Positions 8,778 through 64,000 of a stretch of 64,000 nt of DNA are shown one piece after another. The DNA is from Giardia intestinalis. Its lineage: Eukaryota. The stretch lies in assembly GCA_000002435.2 (NCBI GenBank), contig CM018793.1. One strand, 5' to 3'. The notes beneath the pieces were generated by a model that had not been told where the DNA came from, searched no databases, and saw only the letters and a list, made by a program, of their open reading frames with translations. Position 1 is the stretch's first letter. The number at the start of each line of letters is the position of its first letter. A program made the position numbers and the translations under genes.

Positions 8778-9013
8778 ACTCTCTCAGCTCCAAGACATGG
8801 ATACAATGCTTAGAATATTTCAGCTAGAACCCCAAGATCGCTTCTTAAGTGTAGTAACAATTTCGGCCCTAAAAGTCTGAACCTGCTGAACATAGCTATC
8901 ATCTAATGGTAACAGCTCATTTTGAAATCTAGACACTTCTCCAAATACTCCAAACATTGAATATTTTACAACCAACGCAGAGAGTGTGTCATACCATGGC
9001 GGGTACAAAACCC

Positions 9014-12000
9014 TTACTTGCGAAGAAGAATGTTTGCCCAGAGCCTCCCAACGGACCGAAGGTCTTTGCTCAAGAACTCTATGTCTTTGAGCCACGAGTC
9101 CACCGGTACTTCTAGAACATTTCCAATAACTACTAGAGCCTGCTCGATTAGATCCAACGGGGGCGAGAATACATGTAGAGATTTGGCATATTCTGTTGGT
9201 GGAAGAAGATCCATATAGGGCGTAATGCGAATGAGGTACGACTCGTCTGTGTATAACGAGTACGTAAGAATTTGTTCCTCATGTCTCTTTTCTGCATAAT
9301 TGAGGAGGGACAAGTAGATAGCATTGGACTTATTCGACAGCTGATCAGATTGAGCCACAATTGCAGCATAGAGGAGGCACACCCGCATAGAAAAATCACA
9401 TACAGTGTCCTTCTTAATAGGATGCTCCATTTCAGACAGCAGATGGACATAGCTGCTCACAAGCGCCTTCTTACAGATGGCGCGCAAGAAGTTTATGTAG
9501 ACCGTACGGATTATCCTGCAAGTAGACTGTGGGATATTAATGAGAACACCGGATTCTCTCATCAGAATCCACCCAGAGGCAGCAGTGTAGTTCATTATCG
9601 GCGATCTGTCATTGTACACGCCTGCGAGCCACTGCTGGGACGAAATGACGCCATCCTCTGTGTATGCAACATGGTTGAAGTAGGAACAGGCTGCCCCTAA
9701 AAGCAGGCCTAGAATTTGTGCGTCTGACAACAGGCCGTGAGAGCCTTTTTGGAGCATGGCTAGAAAGATGAATACTTGCCTTAGAACCAGGATAGACCGT
9801 GAGCTGCAGTAGTAGGTGCTGGAAACCTCATTGGTCGTGAGCTTATAGCAAAGATCTGAGAGAGACTGGGGAGGTATCTTATAGTGCGACAACTCAAAGT
9901 ATTGAATACAGGAAAAAAGAAGCCTGAAGAGCTTTTTATGGTTTGACACGTTACTCCTAAACGTGTACAACGTATGTTCTAGCTTCTCGGGCCTCTCTGC
10001 CTCCAACTTTTCATCTGAGACACTTCCATTCAAAATGATATTAGCCCAATAAGAGGCCATAGCCTCGTTGGTCATCTTCTTGAAGTTCTTGCTTACCTTG
10101 GCTGGAAAAAGCGTTCCAGTTGTGTAATCCTGGTAATCTTCGCATCCTTGAGAAAAGAAGCTATGAGGGTACTGGCTATACACATCTTCATTGATTTTCA
10201 TTATAAAATGCTCTGTGTCGACTATTTTTGATCTAGAAATAATAATGGACTTTAAAAACGCCTTTTCACTGGCAGAAAGCTCCTCGATGGTCTTGTAATT
10301 CTTCTCCGGTATCTGAGGCGTTGGGCAGGCAAGATACTGTCCTCGTACCTTTACGCGCTGGCCTATCTTAGCTTGTCGGACCATGTCGTCTGCACTGAAG
10401 CTGTCACGAACGAGCGAGTAGGACAGATGCCCCCCATCGTCTGTTATAGAATCCCGCGCACAAAACGTACCGGACAAGAAGGCGTCGACGGCATTATCAA
10501 TACTCTGCTCTATATGAGTGACCGATGAACGAAGGTCTGACAAATAGTTGTTAATGTTCATCGTCTCCTTCCTGCTCCTGTCGTCATACTTGTTCAGCAA
10601 AGGATTTCTGAGAGATGCGTTGTTCCTCTTTCCTATTAGATGACCAAAGAAGTAGTGGATTGTCTCCAAATGAATATCCTGGTCTCGAACAAAGAGTTGG
10701 TGCTGTATCTGTCTCATGAACATTTCTTTCAGATACAGTCTGATCAGCTTTTTCTGCGAGTTCGTGATAGCATCTGTGTTCAGAAGATCGATGGACAGGG
10801 CCAGAAGCTGCTGATGGGTCTCTTGCACTAAAAACCTAGATTTATACTGTAGCGGTGGCTTTATATCACCAGAGGGGGTATAATTGATCTCGTGTGCTGG
10901 CAAATAGAGAGCTATAATGTTGGGTATGTGCATTATCGTGTATGGATTCGAAGTAACCGTGTCGACTATCTCCTTGGTCTCAACTGCGTCACGCTTCAAT
11001 GCAAACACATTTGTTATCAAGTCTTCTGCCATCTTGTCGCTCCGGCACGGCTTTGCAAGACAGAAAAAGGTGTTATAGACATATTCCATGAAGCCGATGC
11101 GCGAACGCTGGTACTTTTCCAAGAGGATATGTGATATGTAATGCGACACGCTTATCTCTGCGTCCCTTAGGCACCGGATGAATAGTTTTTTGTACCCCTG
11201 AAGATCTCCGTCAGAGTGGGGCAGAGACAGTAGGGAGATAACTGTTTCAGTCACCGAATTGTATATCTCTGTAGAGAAGATAGGCGTTTTTATAAACCAG
11301 GCGTAGTAGACACGAATCAGAATGTCTTTCATTTGAGTCGTATCTGTCGCCACTGCTACTTCATTTTGATATGCAGCTGCATCAGTAAGAAAGAATAACT
11401 GCTGATTGCCCGCTCCCGTCTGTGTGATGTATATATTAAAGAGGTGTCTTGAGCGCTTATTGAACAAGATCTCGCAAAACCTGGCCGCCATCTTGGGTCG
11501 CACAACGGGTTCAAATGTTATTGTGCAGGTCACCAAATTGGCTAGGGGAGCGAAAATCCATATCTTTTGATACACCTTAACCGGTAGAAATACATTGAGG
11601 AAGGTAAGGAAACGTGTCAGTAGCGTCACTGAAAGATATTTCACATTAAGGACAGTAATTACTTCCAGCAGATTTTCTGTCCACTTCGTAAAAGTTGATT
11701 CTTGGCACAGCATATATAAGCACTTCCGCGATGTCACAGTGGACTCCAGAACCTTGAGGAACCTGCTGCGCACGGTGCAATTGATGAAGATTGTCATGAT
11801 TATGTTGAACACAGCGACAACGGAAAGAGCATGTATAAGTACATTGCTGGTGTATCCGGAAGAGGTAGAGACGTAGTTTGGCTCGGAGTTAAACTCATAG
11901 ATGAGACCCAGCAAATAGATCACACAAAGTGGGGGAATGCAGAGCTTTGCGTAGAAGGTTGCATGTACGGGGGAAAAGGCAAATGAAGTAAACAGGAGGC

Positions 12001-25411: not shown

Positions 25412-26017
25412 GACCTATCCTGTCTTATTCACTGTCTACACCTCAAGATAGCCACTTATCATTCTAGCAGCTAGAGTTCTCAACTCTCCAGTGTTATGTC
25501 CTTGTTGGATCGCCCATAACTATCTGGTGCGTTGTACCGTAGTTTTCGATGCACGTATGCAATGCAGTATCCGATTGTATCTCTATTCGGCAAACGTGAG
25601 ATGTACTTGGATTTACCCTTGAGGCAGAGTATTCATCTTATTAGACGCAACAGTGCTGCCGACCAAGCCACTGCTAGGCAGAGCACACGGCCTGTATCTG
25701 CTCATCTCGTGCTCTAGCCAGCCACCCTGCGTGAGCATCTGGAGACATGCCTGGACATATGTGTGGTATTCTGCGGTGTGTACGGTCCCGTGTCCACGCA
25801 GTAGGCCAGCCAGAGAGCGTGTGCAGGCACGCCATGTGGCACCACGTCCTTTGTGGAGCGCTGGAGGAATACACAGGTGAGGGTCTACCATCAAGATGCG
25901 GACACGTTGCTTCCTGACATGGAAGGTCAATGAGGCTATCCAGATGGCCCAGCTATGGTAGAAGGCTAGCAGATGTGATCGTATTGGCCATCAGCACTGT
26001 CACTAACACCAACATGC

Positions 26018-27610
26018 ATGACTAATGGACCTAGCAGGGCCGCAATGTTGCTACTAGTTCTCTGCTTTTTGATGAGCGCCCTCGCCGCGCAACGCACTAA
26101 ACAACCCACATCCGACTGCGGAGTCGCAAACTGCGCCCAGTGCAACGCGGACGGCAGGACGTGTGATCAGTGCAGCGAGGGGTACAACCTCAACCAGGAG
26201 AAGACCCAGTGCACCAAGGCGTGCGCGGTCGCAAACTGCGCCCAGTGCAACGCGGACGGCAGGACGTGTGATCAGTGCAGCGAGGGGTACAACCTCAACC
26301 AGGAGAAGACCCAGTGCACCAAGGCGTGCGCGGTCGCAAACTGCGCCCAGTGCAACGCGGACGGCAGGACGTGTGATCAGTGCAGCGAGGGGTACAACCT
26401 CAACCAGGAGAAGACCCAGTGCACCAAGGCGTGCGCGGTCGCAAACTGCGCCCAGTGCAACGCGGACGGCAGGACGTGTGATCAGTGCAGCGAGGGGTAC
26501 AACCTCAACCAGGAGAAGACCCAGTGCACCAAGGCGTGCGCGGTCGCAAACTGCGCCCAGTGCAACGCGGACGGCAGGACGTGTGATCAGTGCAGCGAGG
26601 GGTACAACCTCAACCAGGAGAAGACCCAGTGCACCAAGAACCCAGAAGCGCGATGCAATACTCCCAACTGTAAGACCTGTGACAGCCCCAAAACAGACAG
26701 TGAAATCTGCACTGAATGTAATAATGGCAACTACCTCACCCCGACAAAGCAGTGCACGCAGAGCTGCGGAACAATAGGAAGCTACTACAACGGAGACAAA
26801 GTGTGCGAGCCCTGTGATCCTAGCTGTGCTGCGTGCATCACAAAGGGACCAGCGAAGTGCACGCTGTGTCCTCCCGGGAAGAGGCTCCAGTACACAGATG
26901 AAGGAGCCACTCAGAACGGCGGATCCTGCGTAGATGAGTGCAAGCCTGAAGGAGGAGCTAGCGGATGCGAGACCTGCGGAGCCACCATCGGAGGGACAAA
27001 GTATTGCTCGAAGTGCAGCACATCCACGGAGGTCCCCGTCAACGGGGTCTGTACAGCAGACAATGCCCGCGCAGCTGCGTGCAAGGTGAAAGATGGCAAG
27101 GGAGGGTGCACTACGTGTGAGAGTGGATACTTCCTCCAAGACGGCGGTTGCTACAAACTCGGTAGACAGCCCGGTGAGCAGATATGCACAGCAGCCAGTA
27201 GCGCTGGTAAGTGCGAGACGTGCGCCAATAGTCTTCAGCCCAATAATGGAGCATGCCCCTCGTGTCACTCGACCTGTAAGACATGTCGTGATGCTAATTC
27301 TGCAAATGCTTGTACAACGTGTGCAGCTGGGTACTATATGGTCGGATCAGCAGCTGGACCATGCACTTCGTGTGACAGCAACAGTGGAAGTGTCAAGGGA
27401 GTTGCTGGCTGCATGAGCTGCGCTCCTCCATCGTCTAGTACTGGCTCCGTCCTTTGCTACCTCATGAACGGTGACAGTGCCGGCGGAAGCACGAACAAGA
27501 GCGGCCTTAGCACAGGCGCCATCGCAGGCATTTCTGTCGCAGTCATCGTTGTCGTGGGGGGTCTTGTCGGCTTCCTCTGCTGGTGGTTCCTCTGCAGGGG
27601 CAAGGCGTAG
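26018..27610 (+). CDS. variant-specific surface protein (VSP) with five 35-aa tandem modules
   Basis: Signal peptide, many CxxC motifs, a GGCY motif, a C-terminal TM, and the invariant tail FLCWWFLCRGKA-stop. The vsp extended poly(A) signal follows. Confidence 0.95.
   Translation: MTNGPSRAAMLLLVLCFLMSALAAQRTKQPTSDCGVANCAQCNADGRTCDQCSEGYNLNQEKTQCTKACAVANCAQCNADGRTCDQCSEGYNLNQEKTQCTKACAVANCAQCNADGRTCDQCSEGYNLNQEKTQCTKACAVANCAQCNADGRTCDQCSEGYNLNQEKTQCTKACAVANCAQCNADGRTCDQCSEGYNLNQEKTQCTKNPEARCNTPNCKTCDSPKTDSEICTECNNGNYLTPTKQCTQSCGTIGSYYNGDKVCEPCDPSCAACITKGPAKCTLCPPGKRLQYTDEGATQNGGSCVDECKPEGGASGCETCGATIGGTKYCSKCSTSTEVPVNGVCTADNARAAACKVKDGKGGCTTCESGYFLQDGGCYKLGRQPGEQICTAASSAGKCETCANSLQPNNGACPSCHSTCKTCRDANSANACTTCAAGYYMVGSAAGPCTSCDSNSGSVKGVAGCMSCAPPSSSTGSVLCYLMNGDSAGGSTNKSGLSTGAIAGISVAVIVVVGGLVGFLCWWFLCRGKA
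26126..26638 (+). repeat. 105-bp perfect tandem repeat, about 4.9 copies, inside the VSP coding region
   Basis: Units start at 26126, 26231, 26336, 26441 and 26546 and are identical base for base (gcaaactgcgcccagtgcaacgcggacggcaggacgtgtgatcagtgcagcgaggggtacaacctcaaccaggagaagacccagtgcaccaaggcgtgcgcggtc). Confidence 0.95.
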
Positions 27611-27616
27611 ATGTGT

Positions 27617-27631
27617 ACTTAGGTAGTAAAC
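27617..27631 (+). promoter_or_regulatory. vsp extended polyadenylation signal ACTTAGGTAGTAAAC (contains AGTAAAC)
   Basis: Lies 6 nt after the VSP1 stop. The same 15-mer follows VSP2 and its inverted copy. Giardia poly(A) signal consensus is AGTRAAY. Confidence 0.8.
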
Positions 27632-28664
27632 GCGTCATTGTGTGTGGCTTATATAAATGTGCTGCTGGGGCTATCTGAGCGTGGCCCAGAGGTCGTGCGG
27701 GTGAGCCCGCTCCTTCCTGGCCAGTCCAGGAACGATGGCTGGTTTTGGATGATATAATAGGGATCTCCCTTCACTTGTATACCAGGAGTCTTTTGCGTCC
27801 CTCAGTTGTTCCGCAGAGGTGTGCTCAGTTCGAGTGTGCGCGTCGCTCAGCCCAGGATTCAACTTACTTGTCCATCTGCATTGTCCACCATTGGTGCCAC
27901 TTCTTGGTCTACCGCTCTGATGCCGGAGGGTCCCAGTAGTTGATGACCCTGGACTGACGCCTCGACAGACCGAAGCATCAGCCCAAGTGTGCTGTGCAGT
28001 GCAGATGGACCAGCCCACACGTCACTGAGCCAGACGCACTGCACAGGGTGAGCGTCGACACGGTCTCGTACTGGATGACGGACCACCTGCAAGAGCGCAC
28101 TGCGATCCATGAGCAGAGGACCATACTTCTCCCCCGATACCAACGCATAGGAGCTGTCCGCCGGCATCCACGAACGCGTACTATGACTCCAAGATAGAGG
28201 CGCACGGGGAGCATACCCTCCGATCATACTCGGAACCGATGATCGCTTCATGGGGAGACAAAGAGGTGCCCCGAGGAACGGGATAGGCACCCGAGGTCGT
28301 GGCGTGCGATCTTCGTCACGGAGCACCAGGGCCACGTGGAGGCCAGGCTGCTGTGACCGACGGTAGCCCCGAGACAACAGGTGCTCACTAGATATCAGAC
28401 GATGGTTGACCCCGACGGGCCAGAGGATGGGAGGAATCTAGAGGCACCGCGAGGAGCGGCAGGTCCCGGGGGAGACAGGATATAGGAGTTCTCCCGCCGG
28501 GATCGAGGGCATCCGACTCTCGGATTTCTGATCTCAGCTATTGTATGAGCGAGAGGCTTGCCCAGGGCGGCAATGGCTCGCATGAAAAGACCACTCCGGT
28601 AGCAGGCGACAACCCCGCCTCATTAAAATTTACTCTTCCCTAACCTCGTCTCTCTAGATATCTG

Positions 28665-52458: not shown

Positions 52459-54588
52459 TTAACAGCAGCACTCCAACCTTTGTAGTACTTCGTTCGAGAG
52501 GAGGGAGACTATCTCGTGGCATCCCCATAGCTTGGCCATACAAAGAGCATCTCCTCCCGTACTGTCTCTCAGACTCTTCTCTCTCACGAGGAGCTTTACA
52601 CAGTCAATACTACCAATTTTCATAGCAAACATAAGAGCGGTCCATCCCGTTTTCTCCTTCATGCCAGCTTCCTTGTCTACGAGTAGCCTAACACAATCTA
52701 CGTGACGATTCTGCGCAGCCCACATGAGAGCGGTCATCCCGTCAGTCCTCTGCATACCACCCTCCAGCTCCACAAGTAATTTGACGCAGTCTGTGCGGCC
52801 GAGCTCTGCAGCGCACATGAGAGCGGTCCATCCATTGCCATCTTGCATGCGGCTTTCCTTTTTCATGAGTAGCTTAACACAGTCTGTATAACCACGACCT
52901 GCTGCAGCCATGAGAGCTGTAGTTCCGTTATTATCTTGCATACATATCTCCTTCCTTAGTAAACTCCTGGCGCAGTTCGAGTAGCCATTACCTACTGTGG
53001 CCATAAGAGCCGTTCCTCCATTGTTATCTCTCATACCTCCTTCCCTTTCCAGCAAAAGCTCGAGACAGTCTATGTGACCAGTTCTTGCAGCCCATATGAG
53101 GGCCGTCCACCCGCTATTATCTCTTATGCCCCCTTCCTTCTCCAGTAGCAGCCCCACAAGTTCTGTGTGACCGTGTATCGCTGCTCTCATCAGGGCGGTC
53201 CCTCCGCATATCTTCCATCTGTCCACATGTGTGCATCCCTTCATCTGCATGCCTCCCTGGAGCGGTATGAGGGTCTTCACTGCCTCCACGTCGTTTCTGT
53301 CAACGGCCCTCATGAGGTCGGTGGAGTCGTCCTCTTCGAGATGCTCCTCCTCTGTGTCCTCTATATTGTCTGTCTCGTCTGTCGTATCTATTGCATCTAC
53401 TGTGTCTGTCGTATCTGTCGTATCCGCTGTATCCGTTGCATTCCACGCGTCCCCCATGCCTATCTTCATCCATATCTCCTTTACCTTCTCAAGCGTCTTG
53501 GAGGTCTCACCAAACTGCTCCTTAGGGATATCTGCCCCTGCGGATTTAGCAGCAAGCTCCTTCTCAAGAGATAGGATCTTGTTGTTGGCATCATTCAGAG
53601 CAGCCTCCAAAGATGCGCATCTGTTCCTCAGTGCTTTATCTTTGGCTTCCTGTTCATCAGGAGGGCCGTTGAGCATCTGAAGCAGACGGACAAGCCCTCT
53701 GGCTGTCGGCCTCCTCTCTGGATCCAGCACGAATATCCGCTCCAGAACACTCTTTATGAAGCCGTCGGTGATGCCACTCAGATCGGGCCTCCACCCATCG
53801 ACGAAGACATCCTCTGGTTCTCTGCCCCCCAAGAAGTCCGGCTTCCTCAGGGTGGCGAGCTCGTATGCTATGGCCCCAATGCTCCAGATGTTGGACGCGG
53901 GAGTTATGATACCGCGGAGGAGCGTCTCGGGGGCCATGTATGCGGGGTCGCCGGTCTTCGTAGCCCAGCTCGACATGCCCATGCAGAGTTCGAAATTCGC
54001 AAGAACAATGTGCCTCCTATTTTCTGTGAATAAAATATTGTCAGGCTTGAAGATAACACCAGGAAACAGGCTGCCGTGGACACCATTGATGGGATCATGC
54101 AAGTAGATAAGGCAATTAGCAAGGTCTCTTACAAGGGAAAGTACCAACCTCTTAGGAATAGGCTTATGAGTTTCTCTGTAATTAGTGATCAACTGCTGAA
54201 GGTCTCCGCAGCGGCGGTCCATGATAATAAAAATCGTATTGCGACTCTTAATTATCTTGCCGCAGCTGAGAACATCCGGATAAGAGGTGTTTGGAAGAGC
54301 GACTAGCTTGAGTTTGGCAGCATCTACACTATACTGGTCTGGATCATCAGGCCGGATCTCCTTCGCGGCAAGGTGAGGGTATCCTTTAAGAGAGTAGATA
54401 GTACTGTAGGCATCCTTGCTGAGCACGTCACCCAGGCACCTGCGCAGCTTCTCGGGACTGAACATGGGGACGTCATCTGTATCCACCAGCCCCGCAAAAC
54501 CACTAGCTGACCCCTCAGTAGGACTCCTTAGAGTGCTATGTGCGGCGGATGAGGTAAGGGGGTAAGACCGGCAGTCAACAGCCATCAT
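52459..54588 (-). CDS. NEK-like protein kinase-domain protein with C-terminal ankyrin repeats, probably a pseudokinase
   Basis: Kinase fold with AAKEI (VAIK Lys) and MAPE, but the catalytic loop HRD is replaced by HGS...KPDN and DFG by NFE. Coiled-coil linker, then at least 8 ankyrin repeats (GGTALM.AA..GH..). The track start is a GTG. The first ATG (54588) has an AT-rich context. Confidence 0.85.
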   Translation of the reverse strand: MMAVDCRSYPLTSSAAHSTLRSPTEGSASGFAGLVDTDDVPMFSPEKLRRCLGDVLSKDAYSTIYSLKGYPHLAAKEIRPDDPDQYSVDAAKLKLVALPNTSYPDVLSCGKIIKSRNTIFIIMDRRCGDLQQLITNYRETHKPIPKRLVLSLVRDLANCLIYLHDPINGVHGSLFPGVIFKPDNILFTENRRHIVLANFELCMGMSSWATKTGDPAYMAPETLLRGIITPASNIWSIGAIAYELATLRKPDFLGGREPEDVFVDGWRPDLSGITDGFIKSVLERIFVLDPERRPTARGLVRLLQMLNGPPDEQEAKDKALRNRCASLEAALNDANNKILSLEKELAAKSAGADIPKEQFGETSKTLEKVKEIWMKIGMGDAWNATDTADTTDTTDTVDAIDTTDETDNIEDTEEEHLEEDDSTDLMRAVDRNDVEAVKTLIPLQGGMQMKGCTHVDRWKICGGTALMRAAIHGHTELVGLLLEKEGGIRDNSGWTALIWAARTGHIDCLELLLEREGGMRDNNGGTALMATVGNGYSNCARSLLRKEICMQDNNGTTALMAAAGRGYTDCVKLLMKKESRMQDGNGWTALMCAAELGRTDCVKLLVELEGGMQRTDGMTALMWAAQNRHVDCVRLLVDKEAGMKEKTGWTALMFAMKIGSIDCVKLLVREKSLRDSTGGDALCMAKLWGCHEIVSLLSNEVLQRLECCC

Positions 54589-55182
54589 TACTTTTAATTT
54601 TACAGTACAGTTTACTCTCCGTTTCACTGGGTAAATCTCCCATGCGAGCCAGCGCCGCCCTGGGCAGGTCTCTTGCTTACTCACTAACCGAAATCCAAAT
54701 CCAGACTTCGCAAGTCAAACGTCGTCCACTTCAGCGGGAGAAGAAGCCCAAATGGGGAAGTCGGTGGTCCAACGCCTAGCCCTCTGCGTCCCCAGTAGAC
54801 AACAAACCCGCGGCTGCTCCCACGAGTGAGCCGCTGAGGAAGGCCTGCGGGGACTCGAAGAAAAGAGTCTAGAGAGCATCCAATAGAATGAGCAGGAGGG
54901 CCAGGAGACAGGAACAAGAGAGCTCTAGCATCTTCCTCTAGCGAACCTCCCTGTCATGGAGAAGGGTGTATGGTGGCTGAGTGTGGGGGTTGTAAACCTA
55001 GAGCAATCGCCGGGTCGATGGCTTCAGCATGGCTTTCAGCAAGATGTAGCAGGGAATCCGAACCAGCTGAGCATTGGACCAGGTCCTGGATAGGAGCTAA
55101 GGGCTCCTGTGCACGGCTGGGCTGCTCTCTAGATGGGACAGGGCACGGTGAGCTGGACGGGTGTGATACTATAAGGTATCTA

Positions 55183-55202
55183 TAGTTGTATCGATACAAC
55201 TA
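55183..55202. repeat. 20-bp perfect palindrome tagttgtatcgatacaacta
   Basis: Seen directly in the sequence. Self-complementary around a central atcgat. Confidence 0.8.
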
Positions 55203-58200
55203 GTAGGCCCACACTGGACTCTGAGAAGTACACTGCTAGACAGGCTGGAGAAGCCTGAGGGGCGATAGCACCATCTTGTTATCGCTATGCAGTGCTCTGT
55301 GGGCATGCATTCAAGACATCATCCCCTGGTAGCCGGGGAGGGGACAGAGTCAGGCGGTAGTGAGCATGCCCATCAGAATGCCTCTAGGTACTGACCAGCC
55401 ACTCCCTAGAAGCGCAGATGTCTCGGCTAGGTTGCATCACATCCAGAGCAAAAGAGGAAGCTGTACTGTCCTATTTGTTTCTCAGAACAATGTGCGAATA
55501 GAAGGCGGCCCAGCGACTGATACTCTGCACCGTCCTCTTCATCCACAGCCTGAGCAGCCAGATGCCAGGCTCAATATGAAGACGGAGGCTGCGAAGAGTA
55601 AACTCACCACGGGGCCGATTGTCTGACACCAAAAAATCCGAAAGGACGACAGTAGCTGCTGTCTCCTTGAAGAGTGCATCACACACAGTATCGACCTTGG
55701 TCTCCTAGACGAACACTCTAGAACATTCTACACTAGCCCTGACTTCTGAGGCATTAAACCCTATAACTAGCACAGAGTGAGGCAACAGCATGCAGACGGT
55801 GCGTTATCTTCATAGATGTGTACTACAGCTTCCGACTGCATATGGATGTACCGAGATGGGCAGTTTGACCGGCTTACATTGGCGACTTGTCCGTCACCGT
55901 GTTTGCTGCGATGAGAAGCTGCGTCTGCCCGGCAGACTGAGCATAGATTACAGCAGCTTCTCTGCTGATGCATGTATGGCCATGCGCCGCCCTAGTAGGT
56001 GGCGTAAATACCATAATGCCTAACCTGTCTGTTGTTAGCGGAAAATAGCAGTTAGTCGTGTTAGAGATGCCTCTAAGTAAGCCTCTAGTCTTTGTGCCTA
56101 CTCCTCTACCAATTATAGTGACGACCGTATATTCAGAAAGACTACGGAACTCTCCACCGTCTCTCAAGGAGACTAACGGCTCATGCATGGGCTAGCGACG
56201 GAGGCCCATGAACTACCTACTACGAGCCTAGCTTACTGAGCAGTCTGGATCACAGTGCACTTGATAAGCATCTATGCACTCATTTGGATGCTCACTACTA
56301 ATACTGACAAGACTACAAGGAGGTTTGCTTTTGGTCACACTCCCCTCATAATGCTTAGCCCTTGGCACCACATTTCAACGAAGGAAGATGTTAGGTAGGT
56401 ACGCAAAAGGCTATTTGTGCACGGTGGTTCCTGGAGAGCAAGTTTGCACAAAGACTGTAAAGGCGACTAGCAGATCAGTGAGGTAAGCCTGACGTTATAG
56501 AGACAAGCTGTAGATCCGGATTGCAATGGGGACGCCTGTGGTGTCTCTCTGGCCTTCGAGTGTAGAAAAATCGCGAGGTCTGCAGACAGGTGAAGCTAGT
56601 TTTTGATTTATGCGCTTATAGCAGTGTAATATTTATTGGGACCTGTTTCGTCTGAGGCCGAAGACGTTTATCTTTTCTCCGTATACAAGCAAGGATCTAC
56701 TGTAGAGATATACTGTGCAGGCCAGTACCAATCGACGTGGTTGCTATTAGCAGGTGTCTCACTTGCACCTTCTCATAACGGGTAGCCATCAGCAGCGTCC
56801 TCGGCCCACGTGACATTCTAGATGCATCTCTGCCTTTGACCAAAGATTGACACACGCGTTGTGTAGTTTAGATTGCTCATCAGCCAGAGTGGCGTGGCTA
56901 CCCCTTATCCTCTACTTGTCTATCTCGTACAACCATTGCTGATGGCCTTTCCAGATTAGCATGCAAATGCTCTTATCGGTCCCACAAAGGCATACGTCAT
57001 ACAAATAATCACTACAGTCTAGGGTCCTGTCTACCAAAGAAAAGGCCAACCAGTTTACCACGTAGGCATTCATTGTGCATCTCATATAGTCTGGCAAGTC
57101 TTGTGCTCCCCAACATTCCCTCGCAAGCCCTCAGCTAAAGCCCGTATGCATATCGTTATTGACAAGCGCCTTAGCTTCATCTGGCCACTTAGGGCGTTAG
57201 ACCCTTTGCCTTGTACAATGAGTATACTCGGCGTGGGAGGTATACAATCAGCATCGGCCTTTTCTGCTCGTTGTCCGTATGATACTGTTGTTGCTTCTTG
57301 ATTCAACCAGCAACCTAGTTAATGGCTCAAGAGTAGGTGATAGCCCGCCAACGGGCAGTCAATAGTGGCCATAACGCATACCTTCACCAAGGCACAGCCT
57401 CCCTGAGCAGAGCACAAAAGTGGACCCTGCCATTCTGCGGCCCTACTATTCTCTTGAATAACAGGATCAGAGCAGCTCATGGTTAGTATTAGCTGTCTTC
57501 GGGTCTCCACCTGTCCTTATTGTCTGAGGTATGCTTGACTCCGTAGATTCGAAAGATGCTGTACTGTACTCGTACCTGCAAGCCTCAGCCAAGCAAGGCT
57601 ACCATCTTGAAGGCTTGGCAGTGATGAGCCACACAGTCGGCGGGATCTGCAGAGAGCATTCATCCCAATGAGCCTTTTACTTGTCGTATACAGGTTGTGG
57701 CTGTGACCTCATAGGCGCAGGACTTTCTGGAATAACCGGTCAACTACAGAGTCTGTCCACTCATGTAAAGCCACCTGATAGAGGGCGATATCAATCTCGT
57801 CACTCGTCTACAACATACACCAGTCGAATCTCACAGATGAACAAGGGCCACCCAGCCCGCAGCACTAGACATTAACAGATATCCTTCACGACAAAGGGGG
57901 TGAGCGACTAGTAGACCACAGCAGTCGCCTGCCCATTGAAGATCTTCCAGTCACTGACCTAGGTCAGCTTCCTACAAGATCTTGAGAGCTTTATTAGAGG
58001 TGCATGCTTATAGAATCCCCAACTCAAGGTGCATGCTGTCGGACCCTGCTATTTTTCACATCAGCTCGTAGACATCGGTTCTTTTGATCTCTAGTGGGGT
58101 CACGGGGGATCGCAAGATATGGTTCCCTCAGTAAGGCTTTATCTGACTCCTGTAGCTATATGACAGGAGGATACCGGTCTTCTATGGATTATTTAACGCA

Positions 58201-59357
58201 TGCTAAGGTGCACCAGTACAAGTCCTACAGTGTGGCATGATTCGTGAGTCAAAAGGTAGGATGCTTGGGCTGATTGGCGTGTCTCCTCGGGACCAAATAC
58301 AGCTAGGACCAAAGGTCATGAACGAATGCTATTCGATTCCCTTATCAGCAGATGGGGGTCAACTGCTCTAGTATCCACAAGAGGCTATAGAGGGTACTGG
58401 ACCAGGCATCCGGCCAATTGCTGGCAAATCAACACAACCTCCTTGGATCTCCATTCTTTCCTCACAGGCATCTACATGTAGGAAGCTCTGAGGACCTAGA
58501 GCCCTACACTAACAGGCTCAAGGTATTGCACTCCTAGGTGCTTCCATTAGTGGTGGTAGTGATAGCACCAGGATGATCCAGAAGGGGGATAGAAATCCTG
58601 CCCCGTTAGCTCAAGAAATGGCACAGTTTGAGCAGGGTTTCCTCCTTGTTTAAATTTGGGAGTACTAGCCTACGCCCTCTGACCATCTGACGCCTTATCA
58701 TGCGATGGGGAATCTTAATAGTATCCACTACAAAAAGCCAGAAATAGCACCATGCACACCCAACAAACCAGAGCGTCTCATAGGCTAATCTACACTGATT
58801 CGCACTTCCACGGACCCTAGCGACCACTGTAACCGTCTCTCGGGATCTTGCAAGGGACTGTCCTTGAGCGCGATTCCTCCATGACAACCAGAAGTCGCAG
58901 ACATAGTCCAAAGGGATGAGAATACTATAGAGGCGGAGAAGAGATCATCTGCGCACGGGGGTCCGCAGGGGCCCGACCCGCACAGGGAAGGCGTAAGAGG
59001 CCAATTCCCCAGGAATGCAGAGACATTAAGAGAGGAACCAGCAGTGGGCCCATAACACAGGGAGGTCACCCGGGCCGCCCCCTGATTGGCCACAGGGTAG
59101 AGGAGCAGCATGCGCGCGGGACAGCATTGCTACTTATTTTTGAATTTTCTGTTTCCCTGCATGTTGTGCAGGGGTCCGCGGTGGGTGCTAGACTATAGTT
59201 AGTAGATGCTTTCGGCATTAACAACTATCTCTTGTACAACAATATTATCAAAAAGGGATTTCTTTAAGCTGGCAGCATAGCAATAACCGAATGGAGCTTT
59301 TTAGCTTTGGGTATCTTTGCTAGTAGGATTCTTGATAGTGGATTAAGAAGAATCTCA

Positions 59358-60617
59358 ATGTTGCTGATAGCTTTCTATCTTGGGCTGAGCGCCCTTGCGG
59401 CACAATGTAAGCAAGTACAAAATTGTGCAGCAGGTAAGTGTGAGATGGTTGGCGGCACTGAAATTTGTACAGAATGCGCGACAAATGGAAACGTTCCTAT
59501 CAATGGGGAGTGTACACCAAAAGGTAATGCGGCTGATAAATGCAAGAAAGTTAACGGTAATGAGCTTGTTGACGATAAGACATGTGGAAAATGTGAGAAC
59601 ACATACTTCATGTACAAGGGTGGATGCTATCAACTTGGCAGTGATGTCGCACTCCTCATCTGCAACGATCAAGCTGCTTCACCTGGAGGGCGTAATGCTG
59701 TTGCTGGCGTTTGCACAGAATGTAATGCTACTGGGGGATTCTTCAAAAGCCCAGAGGCGGCCGACACGACAGATTCCTGCATATCGTGCAGTGATACAAC
59801 TGGAGTGCAGGTTAATGGCGGTAACACGTATAAAGGTATCGAGAATTGTGTAGTATGTGCAGCTCCAGAAAGAGGAACAGGTAACGAAAATAAGATTGCT
59901 GCATGTGAGTCATGTCTTGAAGGATTCTTCGTTGCATCTAACAAGGCAGTATGCACACGTTGTACTGATAATGATAATTGCGCTAAGTGTGATGCAGGCG
60001 AAAACAAGTGCACAAAATGTAAGGCAACAGCCAGCAAACCATATCTAAAAAAGGGCGAAACCGAGGACTCTAATACATGTGTTAATAGTAACGAATGTAC
60101 TACTGATAAAACTTACTTCACTGATGATACTGACGACCCTACTCATGGAAAGATGTGCAAGAAATGCTCAGAAGGGATAGCAGACTGTAAGAAATGCGCT
60201 CCATCATCACCTTCTGCTTTAGCTACAGTATCCGCAATTGTGTGCACAGAATGTACAACACAGACCAACAAACCCAATGTTGCCGGAACAGGGTGCTTCA
60301 CATGCTCCGTAGACGGATGTAGTAACTGTAGCGAGAATGACGTATGTGAAAAGTGTGGACCTAACAAGAAGGTGAGCCCCGGGAGGAAGTCATGCGTGGA
60401 TAGCTGTCCCGAGAACTCCATTGACGATAACTCTGTCTGTACATGCAGCAGTGGGTACAGCCCTGACAGCAGTGGGGCCTCCTGTGTGTCCACTGGCAGT
60501 AATAGGAGCGGGCTCTCCACGGGGGCCATAGCGGGGATCTCCGTCGCAGTCATCGTCGTCGTCGGGGGTCTCATAGGGTTCCTCTGCTGGTGGTTCGTGT
60601 GTAGGGGGAAGGCGTGA
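59358..60617 (+). CDS. variant-specific surface protein (VSP)
   Basis: Signal peptide MLLIAFYLGLSALAAQ, CxxC-rich ectodomain, TM, and the invariant CRGKA-stop. The track start at 59307 is a TTG. The ATG at 59358 follows gattaagaagaatctca. The poly(A) signal overlaps the stop. Confidence 0.95.
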   Translation: MLLIAFYLGLSALAAQCKQVQNCAAGKCEMVGGTEICTECATNGNVPINGECTPKGNAADKCKKVNGNELVDDKTCGKCENTYFMYKGGCYQLGSDVALLICNDQAASPGGRNAVAGVCTECNATGGFFKSPEAADTTDSCISCSDTTGVQVNGGNTYKGIENCVVCAAPERGTGNENKIAACESCLEGFFVASNKAVCTRCTDNDNCAKCDAGENKCTKCKATASKPYLKKGETEDSNTCVNSNECTTDKTYFTDDTDDPTHGKMCKKCSEGIADCKKCAPSSPSALATVSAIVCTECTTQTNKPNVAGTGCFTCSVDGCSNCSENDVCEKCGPNKKVSPGRKSCVDSCPENSIDDNSVCTCSSGYSPDSSGASCVSTGSNRSGLSTGAIAGISVAVIVVVGGLIGFLCWWFVCRGKA

Positions 60618-61162
60618 CTTAGGTAGTAAACACGTCACTGTATATGGCTTATTACGCTATTCTGCCGGGGCTATCTGAGGATCGCCCAGAGGTCGTGCGA
60701 GTGATCCTCGCTCAAGCTCTGACCAGTCTAAGGACGAGGGTTGGTCATGAATAACATGACGGAGAGCCCTCTCCAGTGACACATCCAGAATCTGGGCATT
60801 CCTCGCCGCTCCATGAGGATATGCTCTGTCTGGATGTCCATGCCGATCTATCTTGGATTCAGGCCTTCTCGCAGGCTCTCTACTCTACCCGTGGCGCCTC
60901 TCCATGGTCTTCCTTCGTGGTGGGTGAAGCTCCGGTCGCTGTTTTTTAGATGCTCCTGTCTGTCAGGGGCTGCCACCGGGCTCTCCGCTGGCTGGGCCCT
61001 CGGTGTCCGTCCGGCTGTGGCCCGGGCAGCGCTCTACGGTCGCGGTCACTTGGGTCTCAGTGGGTTCGGATGGTGGGGAGGCGAGGGGAGTTAGGGCGGT
61101 GAGGCCGGAGGGGCTGGAGGGGCTGGAGGGGCTGAGGTTGGTGGTGGTTGTATGCGCCTCTG
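59871..61162. repeat. left arm of a large inverted repeat (3' two-thirds of VSP2 plus ~545 bp of 3' flank)
   Basis: The reverse complement of 62711..64000 matches this segment essentially base for base. The outer limit of the left arm is unknown because the right arm runs off the window. Confidence 0.9.
60617..60631 (+). promoter_or_regulatory. vsp extended polyadenylation signal ACTTAGGTAGTAAAC
   Basis: Identical 15-mer to the one after VSP1. Overlaps the TGA stop. Confidence 0.8.
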
Positions 61163-62710
61163 GTCCCTCGATAGACTGGGGTGATCGCAGCTGTGGTGAC
61201 TGGGGGCTGTCCATCTGTGACTCACCCCTCTGTGTGCTCGTGGTCTGTGAGTGCCTCCACCCAGACAACCCTCAGGAGCCGTGCACACCAGGACAGAGAG
61301 GGTGACAGAGGAGAGTCAAGCAGCCCTGCCACGAGGGTGCACAGCAGCCAGCCTGGGCTGCAGGGCCCGCTCGAGCGATGGTAGTGACAGACGACTCCCT
61401 CTGACAGCAGCCCTGGTGACTGGCACTGGTCTGCTTTCGAGGCTGAGTGACAGTGTGCACAGATGGACATGAGTGCAGGAGGACCATCCACACACGGACA
61501 GACTGTGCCCCCATACGAGAGCGCCAGGCAACCACCCGAGCACCCGAGAGGCAGCAACAGACACGGGCACTAGAGATCCCCAGCCAGACAGCTGCCATGC
61601 TCATCCATAGGGGCATCAGAGGACCAGGGGAGTCACCCTCACAATCAGGGTATGATAGGAAGCCAGAGGACTCAAACACTACAGCATAGCAGATCCAAGG
61701 GAGGCACACTCCAGCAGGCGAGCAGTGGCAGAGCCCTGATAGCTGCCAGCCCCCCATGACACCCAGGCAGGCACCAGGCTCACCGAAGGCTCTGCTGGCC
61801 TCCACCGATGATCCGAGGGGGCAGCAACCAGAGGAGTGGGGAGGCCTTCGGACACCACAAGAGGCCCGGCTGTCCAGCAGGCGATGGAGCACAGGTGGCC
61901 TCTGAGCACCATACAGGCACAGAGCCGACCATCAGAGTGATGCCCGATCAGAGACGACCACGAGCACCCTCCACCGCACTCTGAGGGGCTGTCGATCATC
62001 CCACTGCCTCTCATAGCAGACCTCCTTGAGAGCAGTGCAGTGGGTCCCAGCTCATGCACGCCTCCCCTGGCATAGGACACCCCGGCTCTCCCCGAGGGGT
62101 CATCAGAGCCACGAGAGGTGTCAAGGTCCTGGTAGATCACACCGGGAACTCCCCGAGGGCACAGCAACTGAGATATGAGTGACCCTCAGTGTGCTCCTCT
62201 CTGATGGTAGAGCATCTTGAGACCAAGGGGGTCACCTCTGCCTACGGACGACACACAGCACTCCACAACAAGGACCCACTAGGAGCAGCACAGCTGACCA
62301 CGGGGACAGTGCAGTCACCAGTGCCCCACCGTGCCAGTTTTCTGGGCCATCATACTATAGGCATGAGAGAACCCCATCCCATCCACAGGGTCATCCATGC
62401 CCCTGCTGGCCCGAGGTGAACTCCCCGTCGAGGCGCTGGACAGGGCATGCCAGGGGCTCAGCAGACCCACAGAGAGAATCAGCGAGTAGCAGGAGGGGCT
62501 GCGATGGCCTGCCTCAGCCCTCACGTACCAGCCAGACAGAGAGACAGTACTGCCTGAGGCATGCAGGGGCCAAGGGAGGCGATCAGTCAGGGGACACGAC
62601 ACGATCGTCGGTGCCTGTGTCTCGGGAGTGCAACGAAGGCTGGAGATCAGACACAGCCACCTTAGCAAACAGAGTGGGGACAACCCACCACCCCAATAGC
62701 CCACCGAACC

Positions 62711-64000
62711 CAGAGGCACATACAACACCACCAACCTCAGCCCCTCCAGCCCCTCCAGCCCCTCCGGCCTCACCGCCCTAACTCCCCTCGCCTCCCCACC
62801 ATCCGAACCCACTGAGACCCAAGTGACCGCGACCGTAGAGCGCTGCCCGGGCCACAGCCGGACGGACACCGAGGGCCCAGCCAGCGGAGAGCCCGGTGGC
62901 AGCCCCTGACAGACAGGAGCATCTAAAAAACAGCGACCGGAGCTTCACCCACCACGAAGGAAGACCATGGAGAGGCGCCACGGGTAGAGTAGAGAGCCTG
63001 CGAGAAGGCCTGAATCCAAGATAGATCGGCATGGACATCCAGACAGAGCATATCCTCATGGAGCGGCGAGGAATGCCCAGATTCTGGATGTGTCACTGGA
63101 GAGGGCTCTCCGTCATGTTATTCATGACCAACCCTCGTCCTTAGACTGGTCAGAGCTTGAGCGAGGATCACTCGCACGACCTCTGGGCGATCCTCAGATA
63201 GCCCCGGCAGAATAGCGTAATAAGCCATATACAGTGACGTGTTTACTACCTAAGTCACGCCTTCCCCCTACACACGAACCACCAGCAGAGGAACCCTATG
63301 AGACCCCCGACGACGACGATGACTGCGACGGAGATCCCCGCTATGGCCCCCGTGGAGAGCCCGCTCCTATTACTGCCAGTGGACACACAGGAGGCCCCAC
63401 TGCTGTCAGGGCTGTACCCACTGCTGCATGTACAGACAGAGTTATCGTCAATGGAGTTCTCGGGACAGCTATCCACGCATGACTTCCTCCCGGGGCTCAC
63501 CTTCTTGTTAGGTCCACACTTTTCACATACGTCATTCTCGCTACAGTTACTACATCCGTCTACGGAGCATGTGAAGCACCCTGTTCCGGCAACATTGGGT
63601 TTGTTGGTCTGTGTTGTACATTCTGTGCACACAATTGCGGATACTGTAGCTAAAGCAGAAGGTGATGATGGAGCGCATTTCTTACAGTCTGCTATCCCTT
63701 CTGAGCATTTCTTGCACATCTTTCCATGAGTAGGGTCGTCAGTATCATCAGTGAAGTAAGTTTTATCAGTAGTACATTCGTTACTATTAACACATGTATT
63801 AGAGTCCTCGGTTTCGCCCTTTTTTAGATATGGTTTGCTGGCTGTTGCCTTACATTTTGTGCACTTGTTTTCGCCTGCATCACACTTAGCGCAATTATCA
63901 TTATCAGTACAACGTGTGCATACTGCCTTGTTAGATGCAACGAAGAATCCTTCAAGACATGACTCACATGCAGCAATCTTATTTTCGTTACCTGTTCCTC
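62711..64000. repeat. right arm of the inverted repeat (continues past the window end)
   Basis: Mirror copy of 59871..61162. Only an indel and a mismatch are visible near the inner junction (ttggtggtggttgtatgcgcc vs ttggtggtgttgtatgtgcc). Confidence 0.9.
63255..64000 (-). CDS. variant-specific surface protein, inverted duplicate of VSP2 (5' part lies outside the window)
   Basis: The minus-strand translation is identical to VSP2 residues ~172-419 and ends CRGKA-stop. Minus-strand ACTTAGGTAGTAAAC lies at 63241..63255. Confidence 0.9.
   Translation of the reverse strand, partial: GTGNENKIAACESCLEGFFVASNKAVCTRCTDNDNCAKCDAGENKCTKCKATASKPYLKKGETEDSNTCVNSNECTTDKTYFTDDTDDPTHGKMCKKCSEGIADCKKCAPSSPSALATVSAIVCTECTTQTNKPNVAGTGCFTCSVDGCSNCSENDVCEKCGPNKKVSPGRKSCVDSCPENSIDDNSVCTCSSGYSPDSSGASCVSTGSNRSGLSTGAIAGISVAVIVVVGGLIGFLCWWFVCRGKA

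Follow-up and report, generated by a model that had tools for sequence, protein, structure and literature searches.

Why does one surface-antigen gene of Giardia intestinalis stand as two identical copies facing each other tail to tail, and what keeps the copies identical? The question is raised by the end of a 64,000-nucleotide stretch of contig CM018793.1 (assembly GCA_000002435.2), here called the window. Positions 59,358 to 64,000 of the window hold two convergent genes for a variant-specific surface protein (VSP), embedded in the arms of an inverted repeat. The locus is the catalogued 'identical inverted pair' vsp107.1/107.2 (GL50803_00d14331/GL50803_0014331) on chromosome 5 of isolate WB (assemblage A1), and is already known. 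The explanation favoured here, at a probability of about 0.9, is that this pair is an old inverted segmental duplication whose arms have been kept identical by intrachromosomal gene conversion.

A repeat search of positions 55000-64000 finds one inverted pair only, 59872-61146 and 62726-64000; each arm is 1275 nt long and 1579 nt lie between them. The pair is also the only long inverted repeat of the whole window. Direct string comparison shows the arms to be complementary at 1275 of 1275 positions, with no mismatches, and a match of this kind cannot have arisen by chance. The visible part of the left arm (59872-61146) consists of the last 746 nt of a VSP coding sequence (CDS) and 529 nt of 3' flank. 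Its mirror image, the right arm (62726-64000), is cut by the end of the window. The stop codons face inward and are separated by an intergenic region of 2637 nt.

At its inner edge the repeat runs 17 nt further, from 61147 to 61163, paired with 62710-62726, and then ends abruptly. This extension is imperfect (94% complementary, one mismatch or indel) and is read as the ancestral arm/spacer junction; it brings the 3' flank in each arm to 546 nt. A 9-nt tandem repeat (GGCTGGAGG, 3.6 copies), detected by TRF, lies at the inner edge of the left arm (61103-61134) and is mirrored at 62738-62769. These values uphold the sequence-only reading made of the window beforehand, which had described a convergent inverted duplication of a Giardia VSP gene with about 545 bp of downstream flank. 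The same reading had limited the duplication to the 3' two-thirds of the gene; this limit is an artefact of truncation at the window edge, and the duplication takes in the entire gene and some DNA upstream of it. The apparent left limit of the arm, 59871/59872, is not biological, because it mirrors the point (64000) at which the window cuts the right arm. The coding part that can be compared in both copies is 746 of 1260 nt (59%), with no differences; for the right copy, the 514 nt at the 5' end fall outside the window.

The left copy, vsp107.1 (GL50803_00d14331; KAE8305600.1/XP_001705960.1), is a complete CDS of 419 aa on the plus strand at 59358-60617, identified by translation, Pfam and exact-sequence look-up. 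The right copy, vsp107.2 (GL50803_0014331; KAE8305601.1/XP_037902306.1), is on the minus strand and contributes the 3' 746 nt of its CDS (63255-64000); its stop codon TGA is the reverse complement of 63255-63257. The exact 419-aa protein is recorded under two consecutive WB accessions, KAE8305600.1 and KAE8305601.1 (UniRef 'VSP n=2'). Because the two accessions share one 419-aa sequence, both copies are full length.

All the features expected of a VSP are present. The left protein, MLLIAFYLGLSALAAQC...AIAGISVAVIVVVGGLIGFLCWWFVCRGKA*, has a cysteine-rich ectodomain (46 Cys, 11%) with 15 CXXC motifs and one GGCY at residue 88, followed by the conserved transmembrane domain and the CRGKA tail. 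Its N-terminus is hydrophobic and resembles a signal peptide, as judged by eye and not by a predictor. It matches the Giardia VSP family, PF03302, with E=1.9e-26 and 93 bits against a cut-off of 31.4. The initiator or Kozak-like element CAATGTT (59356-59362, plus strand) spans the ATG at 59358-59360, and reads directly as the PyAATGTT form of VSP genes. The extended VSP polyadenylation signal GACTTAGGTAGTAAACACGT is found at 60616-60635 on the plus strand, with its AGTAAA at 60625-60630, 8 nt past the stop; by sequence match, the right copy has AGTAAA at 63242-63247 on the minus strand, also 8 nt past its stop. The same 20-mer is listed for both GL50803_0014331 and 00d14331 in the polyadenylation-signal table of a preprint (10.1101/2022.03.07.483299).

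Every value that can be measured in the window agrees with the published pair (419 aa, 46 Cys, 15 CXXC, 529 and 2637). Adam 2010 lists gene 107 in Table 5 as a tail-to-tail pair with 3' divergence at 529 nt and an ORF distance of 2638; Additional file 1 of that paper gives 107.1 and 107.2 as TTIPa and TTIPb of clade III, chromosome 5, GL50803_14331, with Inr CAATGTT, 419 aa, 46 Cys and 15 CXXC (PMC2996952). The PacBio reference of Xu 2020 has 'd14331, 14331, -> <-, 419 aa, 2637 bp' in Table 2 (PMC7000408). The S4 table of the Rodriguez-Walker preprint gives 2,637 nt with no gene between the copies and the remark 'VSP like region (*5)' (10.1101/2022.03.07.483299).

The pair also has the properties by which Adam 2010 defined this class. 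Its ORFs are inverted and identical, as seen over the 746 shared nt and in the two accessions; the 2637 nt of non-coding DNA between them fall within the 2-4 kb range; and on the 3' side the flanks diverge abruptly 529 or 546 nt from the ORF, within the range of 139-729 nt. The vsp1267 pair and the other WB pairs have the same plan of inverted identical ORFs, 2-4 kb between them and flanks whose identity ends abruptly a few hundred nt from the ORF. Identical VSP pairs in WB number 14 in Adam 2010 (PMC2996952), 19 in Xu 2020 (PMC7000408) and 20 in the preprint, 13 of them tail-to-tail and 7 head-to-head (10.1101/2022.03.07.483299); Giardia muris has seven (PMC7641422). Locus, geometry and class have thus been in print since 2010. 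The published descriptions of vsp107.1/107.2 do not include a comparison with isolate DH or a pattern of concerted evolution, and the one modest new point made here is comparative: assemblages A1 and A2 both have the pair, and its arms have evolved in concert.

The closest relative of the VSP protein is found in isolate DH (assemblage A2), with 95% identity. The DH contig AHGT01000063.1 has the same architecture: a VSP gene, an arm that ends 447 nt past the stop, a 1792-nt spacer and an inverted arm. The contig ends inside this right arm, of which 484 nt are available; by direct count the two DH arms are identical at 482 of these 484 nt, with two differences. In a four-way arm alignment, 482 columns contain all arms. 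The four arms agree in 347 of these columns, and WB and DH show fixed differences in 134 (15 of them indels); no column differs between the WB arms and one differs between the DH arms.

Just past the arms, the ends of the spacer correspond between the isolates. The left end of WB is 92.4% identical to that of DH and the right end 92.7%; left and right ends are unrelated to each other. All four arm ends, in WB and DH, carry the junction motif TTGTATG.GCCTCTGG. Since spacer ends on the same side are orthologous and the two sides are unrelated, the junctions appear to go back to one ancestral junction. The shared structure, the orthologous spacer ends and the common motif together place the duplication before the split of the WB and DH lineages. 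The arms have nevertheless been homogenised since that split, as shown by 134 differences between the isolates against 0 (WB) and 1-2 (DH) within a genome. Across the two lineages compared, the arms are therefore closer within a genome than between genomes while sharing a junction, which is the pattern by which conversion in palindromes is recognised. Homogenisation had been proposed from the window sequence, and the comparison agrees with it: WB and DH differ at 134 of 482 columns, and the arms of each isolate differ at only 0 and 2 positions.

The difference between WB and DH is not evenly distributed. The first 1043 nt of the CDS are 98.6% identical and the last 217 nt 78%; the arm flanks are 74-77% identical and the spacer 89%. 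The block of low identity is symmetric in both arms. The drop in identity near 60400 (60400-60900, mirrored at 62970-63470; AHGT01000063.1 11090-11560) resembles a recombination breakpoint. It appears that in one lineage the conserved VSP 3' end was replaced ectopically and that the new sequence was afterwards copied into the other arm. The innermost 110 nt or so of the DH arms, which are G-rich and contain 9-nt repeats, have only about 59% identity while the rest has 99.6%; in WB the arms are identical there. Because this inner edge has decayed in DH and is identical in WB, the boundary between arm and spacer has shifted by about 91 nt between the isolates.

These patterns fit a simple history. 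An inverted segmental duplication would have placed a VSP gene, together with the region upstream of it and 529 nt of 3' flank, on either side of a 1.58-kb non-coding spacer. Gene conversion between the inverted copies would then repeatedly overwrite one arm with the other, and it is this arm-to-arm conversion, as the likely mechanism, that would explain why the arms do not diverge. New variants would reach both arms, including the replacement of about 0.5 kb that covers the conserved VSP 3' end and the proximal flank. Conversion tracts would rarely extend to the very inner edge; the edge could therefore lose its identity, as it has in DH, or regain it, as it has in WB. From the comparison of two genomes, we infer that gene conversion rather than repeated re-duplication is responsible.

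Large palindromes elsewhere, such as those of the human Y chromosome and the inverted repeats of plastids, are generally known to behave in a similar way. They too have inverted arms around a unique spacer and near-identity within a genome; their arms differ between lineages, and the boundary between arm and spacer shifts. The Giardia pair is smaller, with arms of 1.8-3.3 kb and a single antigen gene, and conversion is deduced here from two genomes. The presence of the pair in both A1 and A2 and the concerted evolution of its arms argue that such 'cryptic' VSP pairs are long-lived palindromes kept by gene conversion and not recent accidents. Such pairs may also take part in the diversification of the VSP repertoire, as a new 3' end gained by one copy would spread to both.

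The spacer itself (61147-62725, 1579 nt, 61% G+C, T-poor on the plus strand) is non-coding, as judged by composition and by Pfam and Rfam searches. ORFs of at least 100 aa inside it or overlapping it have no Pfam match, Rfam gives no match at E<=1, and TRF detects no tandem structure within it. Between KAE8305600.1 and KAE8305601.1, which are consecutive accessions, no gene is annotated. On the minus strand at 61147-62869 there are three overlapping ORFs of 162-206 aa without Pfam homologues; their length is explained by the composition of that strand, which is A-poor (14% A) and so contains few stop codons. With no Pfam or Rfam match and with the ORFs accounted for in this way, the spacer was rejected as a coding sequence or a functional RNA.

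In contrast to this spacer, which has no recognisable content, the head-to-head pairs of WB often enclose retrotransposon relics, and the spacers of Giardia muris pairs hold NEK, ankyrin or zinc-finger (pseudo)genes (PMC7641422). The spacer had been called a unique core; it is unique within the window, but very similar spacers are reported between several other VSP pairs. The preprint likens the spacer of this pair to those of four others (10.1101/2022.03.07.483299).

Composition also gives an indication of which copy came first. On the plus strand the spacer has A.24, C.32, G.30 and T.14, and the right-hand 3' flank has A.25, C.34, G.26 and T.15; the left-hand flank has the opposite composition, so that the spacer continues the right flank only. 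The A/T skew switches at about 61250, beside the left arm and not at the geometric centre. Because the composition of the spacer follows the right flank and the skew switches at the left arm, the right copy is suggested to be parental. The parental arrangement would then be the right copy with about 2.1 kb of flank of uniform composition, and the left copy would be a duplicate of the gene and the proximal 0.53 kb of this T-poor flank. A degenerate palindrome inside the spacer was also considered and rejected, since only short matches at chance level are found and the skew switch is off-centre.

The duplicate probably arose by fold-back or template-switch repair that copied the right-hand gene together with its proximal flank. 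The structure had been described as prone to form cruciforms; as far as is generally known, extrusion is unlikely across a spacer of 1.58 kb. Single-stranded DNA may still fold back during replication or repair.

Some points weigh against gene conversion in an old duplication. The near-identity of the DH arms is seen over 484 nt of a 454 assembly, in which some consensus blending is possible. The difference of 28% between WB and DH in the proximal flank may represent one ectopic replacement followed by a single arm-to-arm conversion, and not many events; the rate of conversion is consequently not fixed by it. The right arm past 64000 and the right outer junction are outside the window. Lastly, Adam 2010 took identical pairs to be relatively recent duplications (PMC2996952).

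This last view, in which the arms are identical because the copy is very young and no homogenisation is needed, is the authors' own interpretation (PMC2996952), and the 100% identity of the WB arms agrees with it. It is very improbable in light of DH, where the pair is arranged in the same way, the spacer ends are orthologous and the junction motif is shared. The DH locus differs from that of WB by 7-25% depending on the segment, and identity between its arms falls to about 59% at the decayed inner edge, against 99.6% elsewhere. Two independent recent duplications at shared junctions, one in each lineage, would not be parsimonious. The DH contig also bears on the concern that a single VSP gene was misassembled as an inverted duplicate. 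Assembly errors are a classic consequence of identical inverted repeats; such pairs ended contigs prematurely in the work of Adam 2010 (PMC2996952), and according to the preprint they were once questioned as artefacts (10.1101/2022.03.07.483299). The concern was thus justified for early assemblies, which these pairs did break, but here misassembly is excluded by Sanger, PacBio, DH 454 and metagenome assemblies, and its chance of being the explanation is negligible. The same pair with the same geometry (529 and 2637-8) is present in the Sanger-era assembly (2007/2010) and in the PacBio reference. The independent 454 assembly of DH reads from left arm through spacer to right arm, and a metagenome contig joins variants specific to the right arm to the other end of the spacer. 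The inner 110 nt of the DH arms differ, so that they cannot be a collapsed single copy.

An explanation of another kind assigns the pair a role in antigen silencing. Transcripts that read through the polyadenylation signal would cross the spacer into the partner and give antisense VSP RNA, hence double-stranded RNA (dsRNA); this would feed the silencing of all but one VSP by Dicer, Argonaute and RNA-dependent RNA polymerase. The VSP copies are convergent and identical, as this requires. Each copy has one AGTRAA, at 60625 (plus) and 63242 (minus), and there is no other on either transcribed strand across the 2637 nt; a read-through transcript would therefore enter the partner in antisense, since it meets no further canonical signal. 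Alternative polyadenylation more than 1 kb downstream has been reported for some VSPs, antisense VSP RNA is abundant, and transcripts overlap in 81% of tail-to-tail gene pairs in Giardia. However, the polyadenylation signal 8 nt past the stop is of the canonical extended VSP form, and the median 3' UTR in Giardia of 80 nt (PMC3610916) counts against read-through. That no second AGTRAA occurs in 2.6 kb of DNA this rich in G+C hardly departs from chance; as about one site would be expected, its absence carries little weight. Antisense RNA is seen for most VSPs whether paired or not, 40 of 136 VSPs being paired, and more sense than antisense reads are found in only 12-20% of VSPs. Furthermore, 7 of the 20 pairs are divergent and not convergent, and vsp1267, which is paired, is a standard, well-known expressed VSP. 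The published silencing model uses RNA-dependent RNA polymerase and does not require convergent genes. Silencing by read-through is consequently very unlikely.

The broader proposal is just as unlikely; here paired convergent VSPs would be built-in dsRNA sources that seed the expression of one VSP at a time, and concerted evolution of the arms would be selected for a perfect duplex. The pair does resemble the hairpin and convergent-transcript loci that are generally known to give rise to endogenous small interfering RNAs in animals, plants and fungi, in that identical inverted sequences would yield dsRNA if co-transcribed. It differs from them in that either Giardia arm holds an entire gene, including an initiator and a polyadenylation signal, and the pair is known here from its sequence. 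Apart from supplying one antigen gene in duplicate, the structure probably plays no dedicated part in regulation. Counts of uniquely mapped reads for GL50803_0014331 are 0 in all samples of the preprint (10.1101/2022.03.07.483299); these zeros are uninformative, because multi-mapping reads of a duplicated gene are discarded. Paired VSPs are invisible to RNA-seq and small-RNA analyses that rely on unique mapping, and multi-mapping reads should be kept when their expression and antisense RNA are studied.

The outer end of the left arm can be approached from short-read assemblies. Seven independent WB-like contigs (k=31; 99.9-100% match) all end at exactly 57845, where the sequence is not low-complexity; WB-like short-read contigs cross 54636 unbroken. 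Since seven k=31 contigs stop at 57845, the repeat would start near 57816, although the stop could instead be the edge of another dispersed repeat. The probable outer left arm is therefore placed at 57816-59871, with a start between about 57816 and 59358. As neither annotated protein is truncated, the WB arm extends outward at least as far as 59358; the two limits for its start give a length of 1.8-3.3 kb, and divergence on the 5' side would begin at most 1542 nt upstream of the ORF.

In DH the arms may reach further out. All DH-like contigs, at k=31 and k=141, start at position 2319 of AHGT01000063.1, which corresponds to window position 54633 and is where homology between WB and DH begins. 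This suggests a repeat that begins at 2319, with A2 arms that are possibly much longer (9.4 kb). The metagenome contig ERZ27317378 k141_29712 (8957-11168) is 99.9% identical to DH, and in it the upstream region and the VSP gene are joined to the opposite end of the spacer. Its orientation, opposite to that of the spacer in the DH contig, suggested a flip-flop inversion. The contig bears two variants specific to the right arm together with the right inner edge. Given these variants and the repeat implied by the common start at 2319, the simplest reading of the contig is as the right copy in reverse; a true inversion, for or against which no evidence was found, and a path choice by the assembler are less likely alternatives.

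Left of window position 54633, WB and DH are not syntenic (window 54382-54977; AHGT01000063.1 2281-2764). The left flank holds a NEK kinase with ankyrin repeats in WB, and a cathepsin-like peptidase and an EGF-like gene on the DH contig. In DH the kinase orthologue is located at the end of another contig, which could not be joined to the arm, as its last 606 nt have a similarity of only 67-70% to this boundary region. A1 and A2 may differ in what flanks the palindrome, or in how it is oriented relative to the flanks.

DH and the DH-like contigs have about 3.1 kb that WB does not (window 54937-54969; AHGT01000063.1 2619-5714). This segment holds a reverse-transcriptase remnant ('Reverse transcriptase', ESU35933.1; weak Pfam RVT_1 match). 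The 4.7 kb between kinase and VSP in WB contain no credible gene. The kinase gene with ankyrin repeats (52459-54684, minus strand) has about 94% DNA identity to its DH counterpart, and short-read contigs from both sides stop inside it at about 53750-53920. Its divergence is consistent with the high variability reported for such genes beside VSPs. The adjacent genes of the window are GL50803_0016622 and GL50803_006227.

The window contains a second VSP gene at 26012-27743, which encodes 530 aa with a CRGKA end (Pfam VSP, E=2.9e-98). Its last 120 coding nt and the first 128 nt or so of its 3' flank are 78-81% identical to the paired VSP, after which the similarity ends. A 105-nt unit is repeated in tandem within it, four to five times and almost unchanged (26117-26641), and the gene matches vsp108 of Adam 2010 (TR105, 530 aa, chromosome 5, GL50803_102662; PMC2996952).

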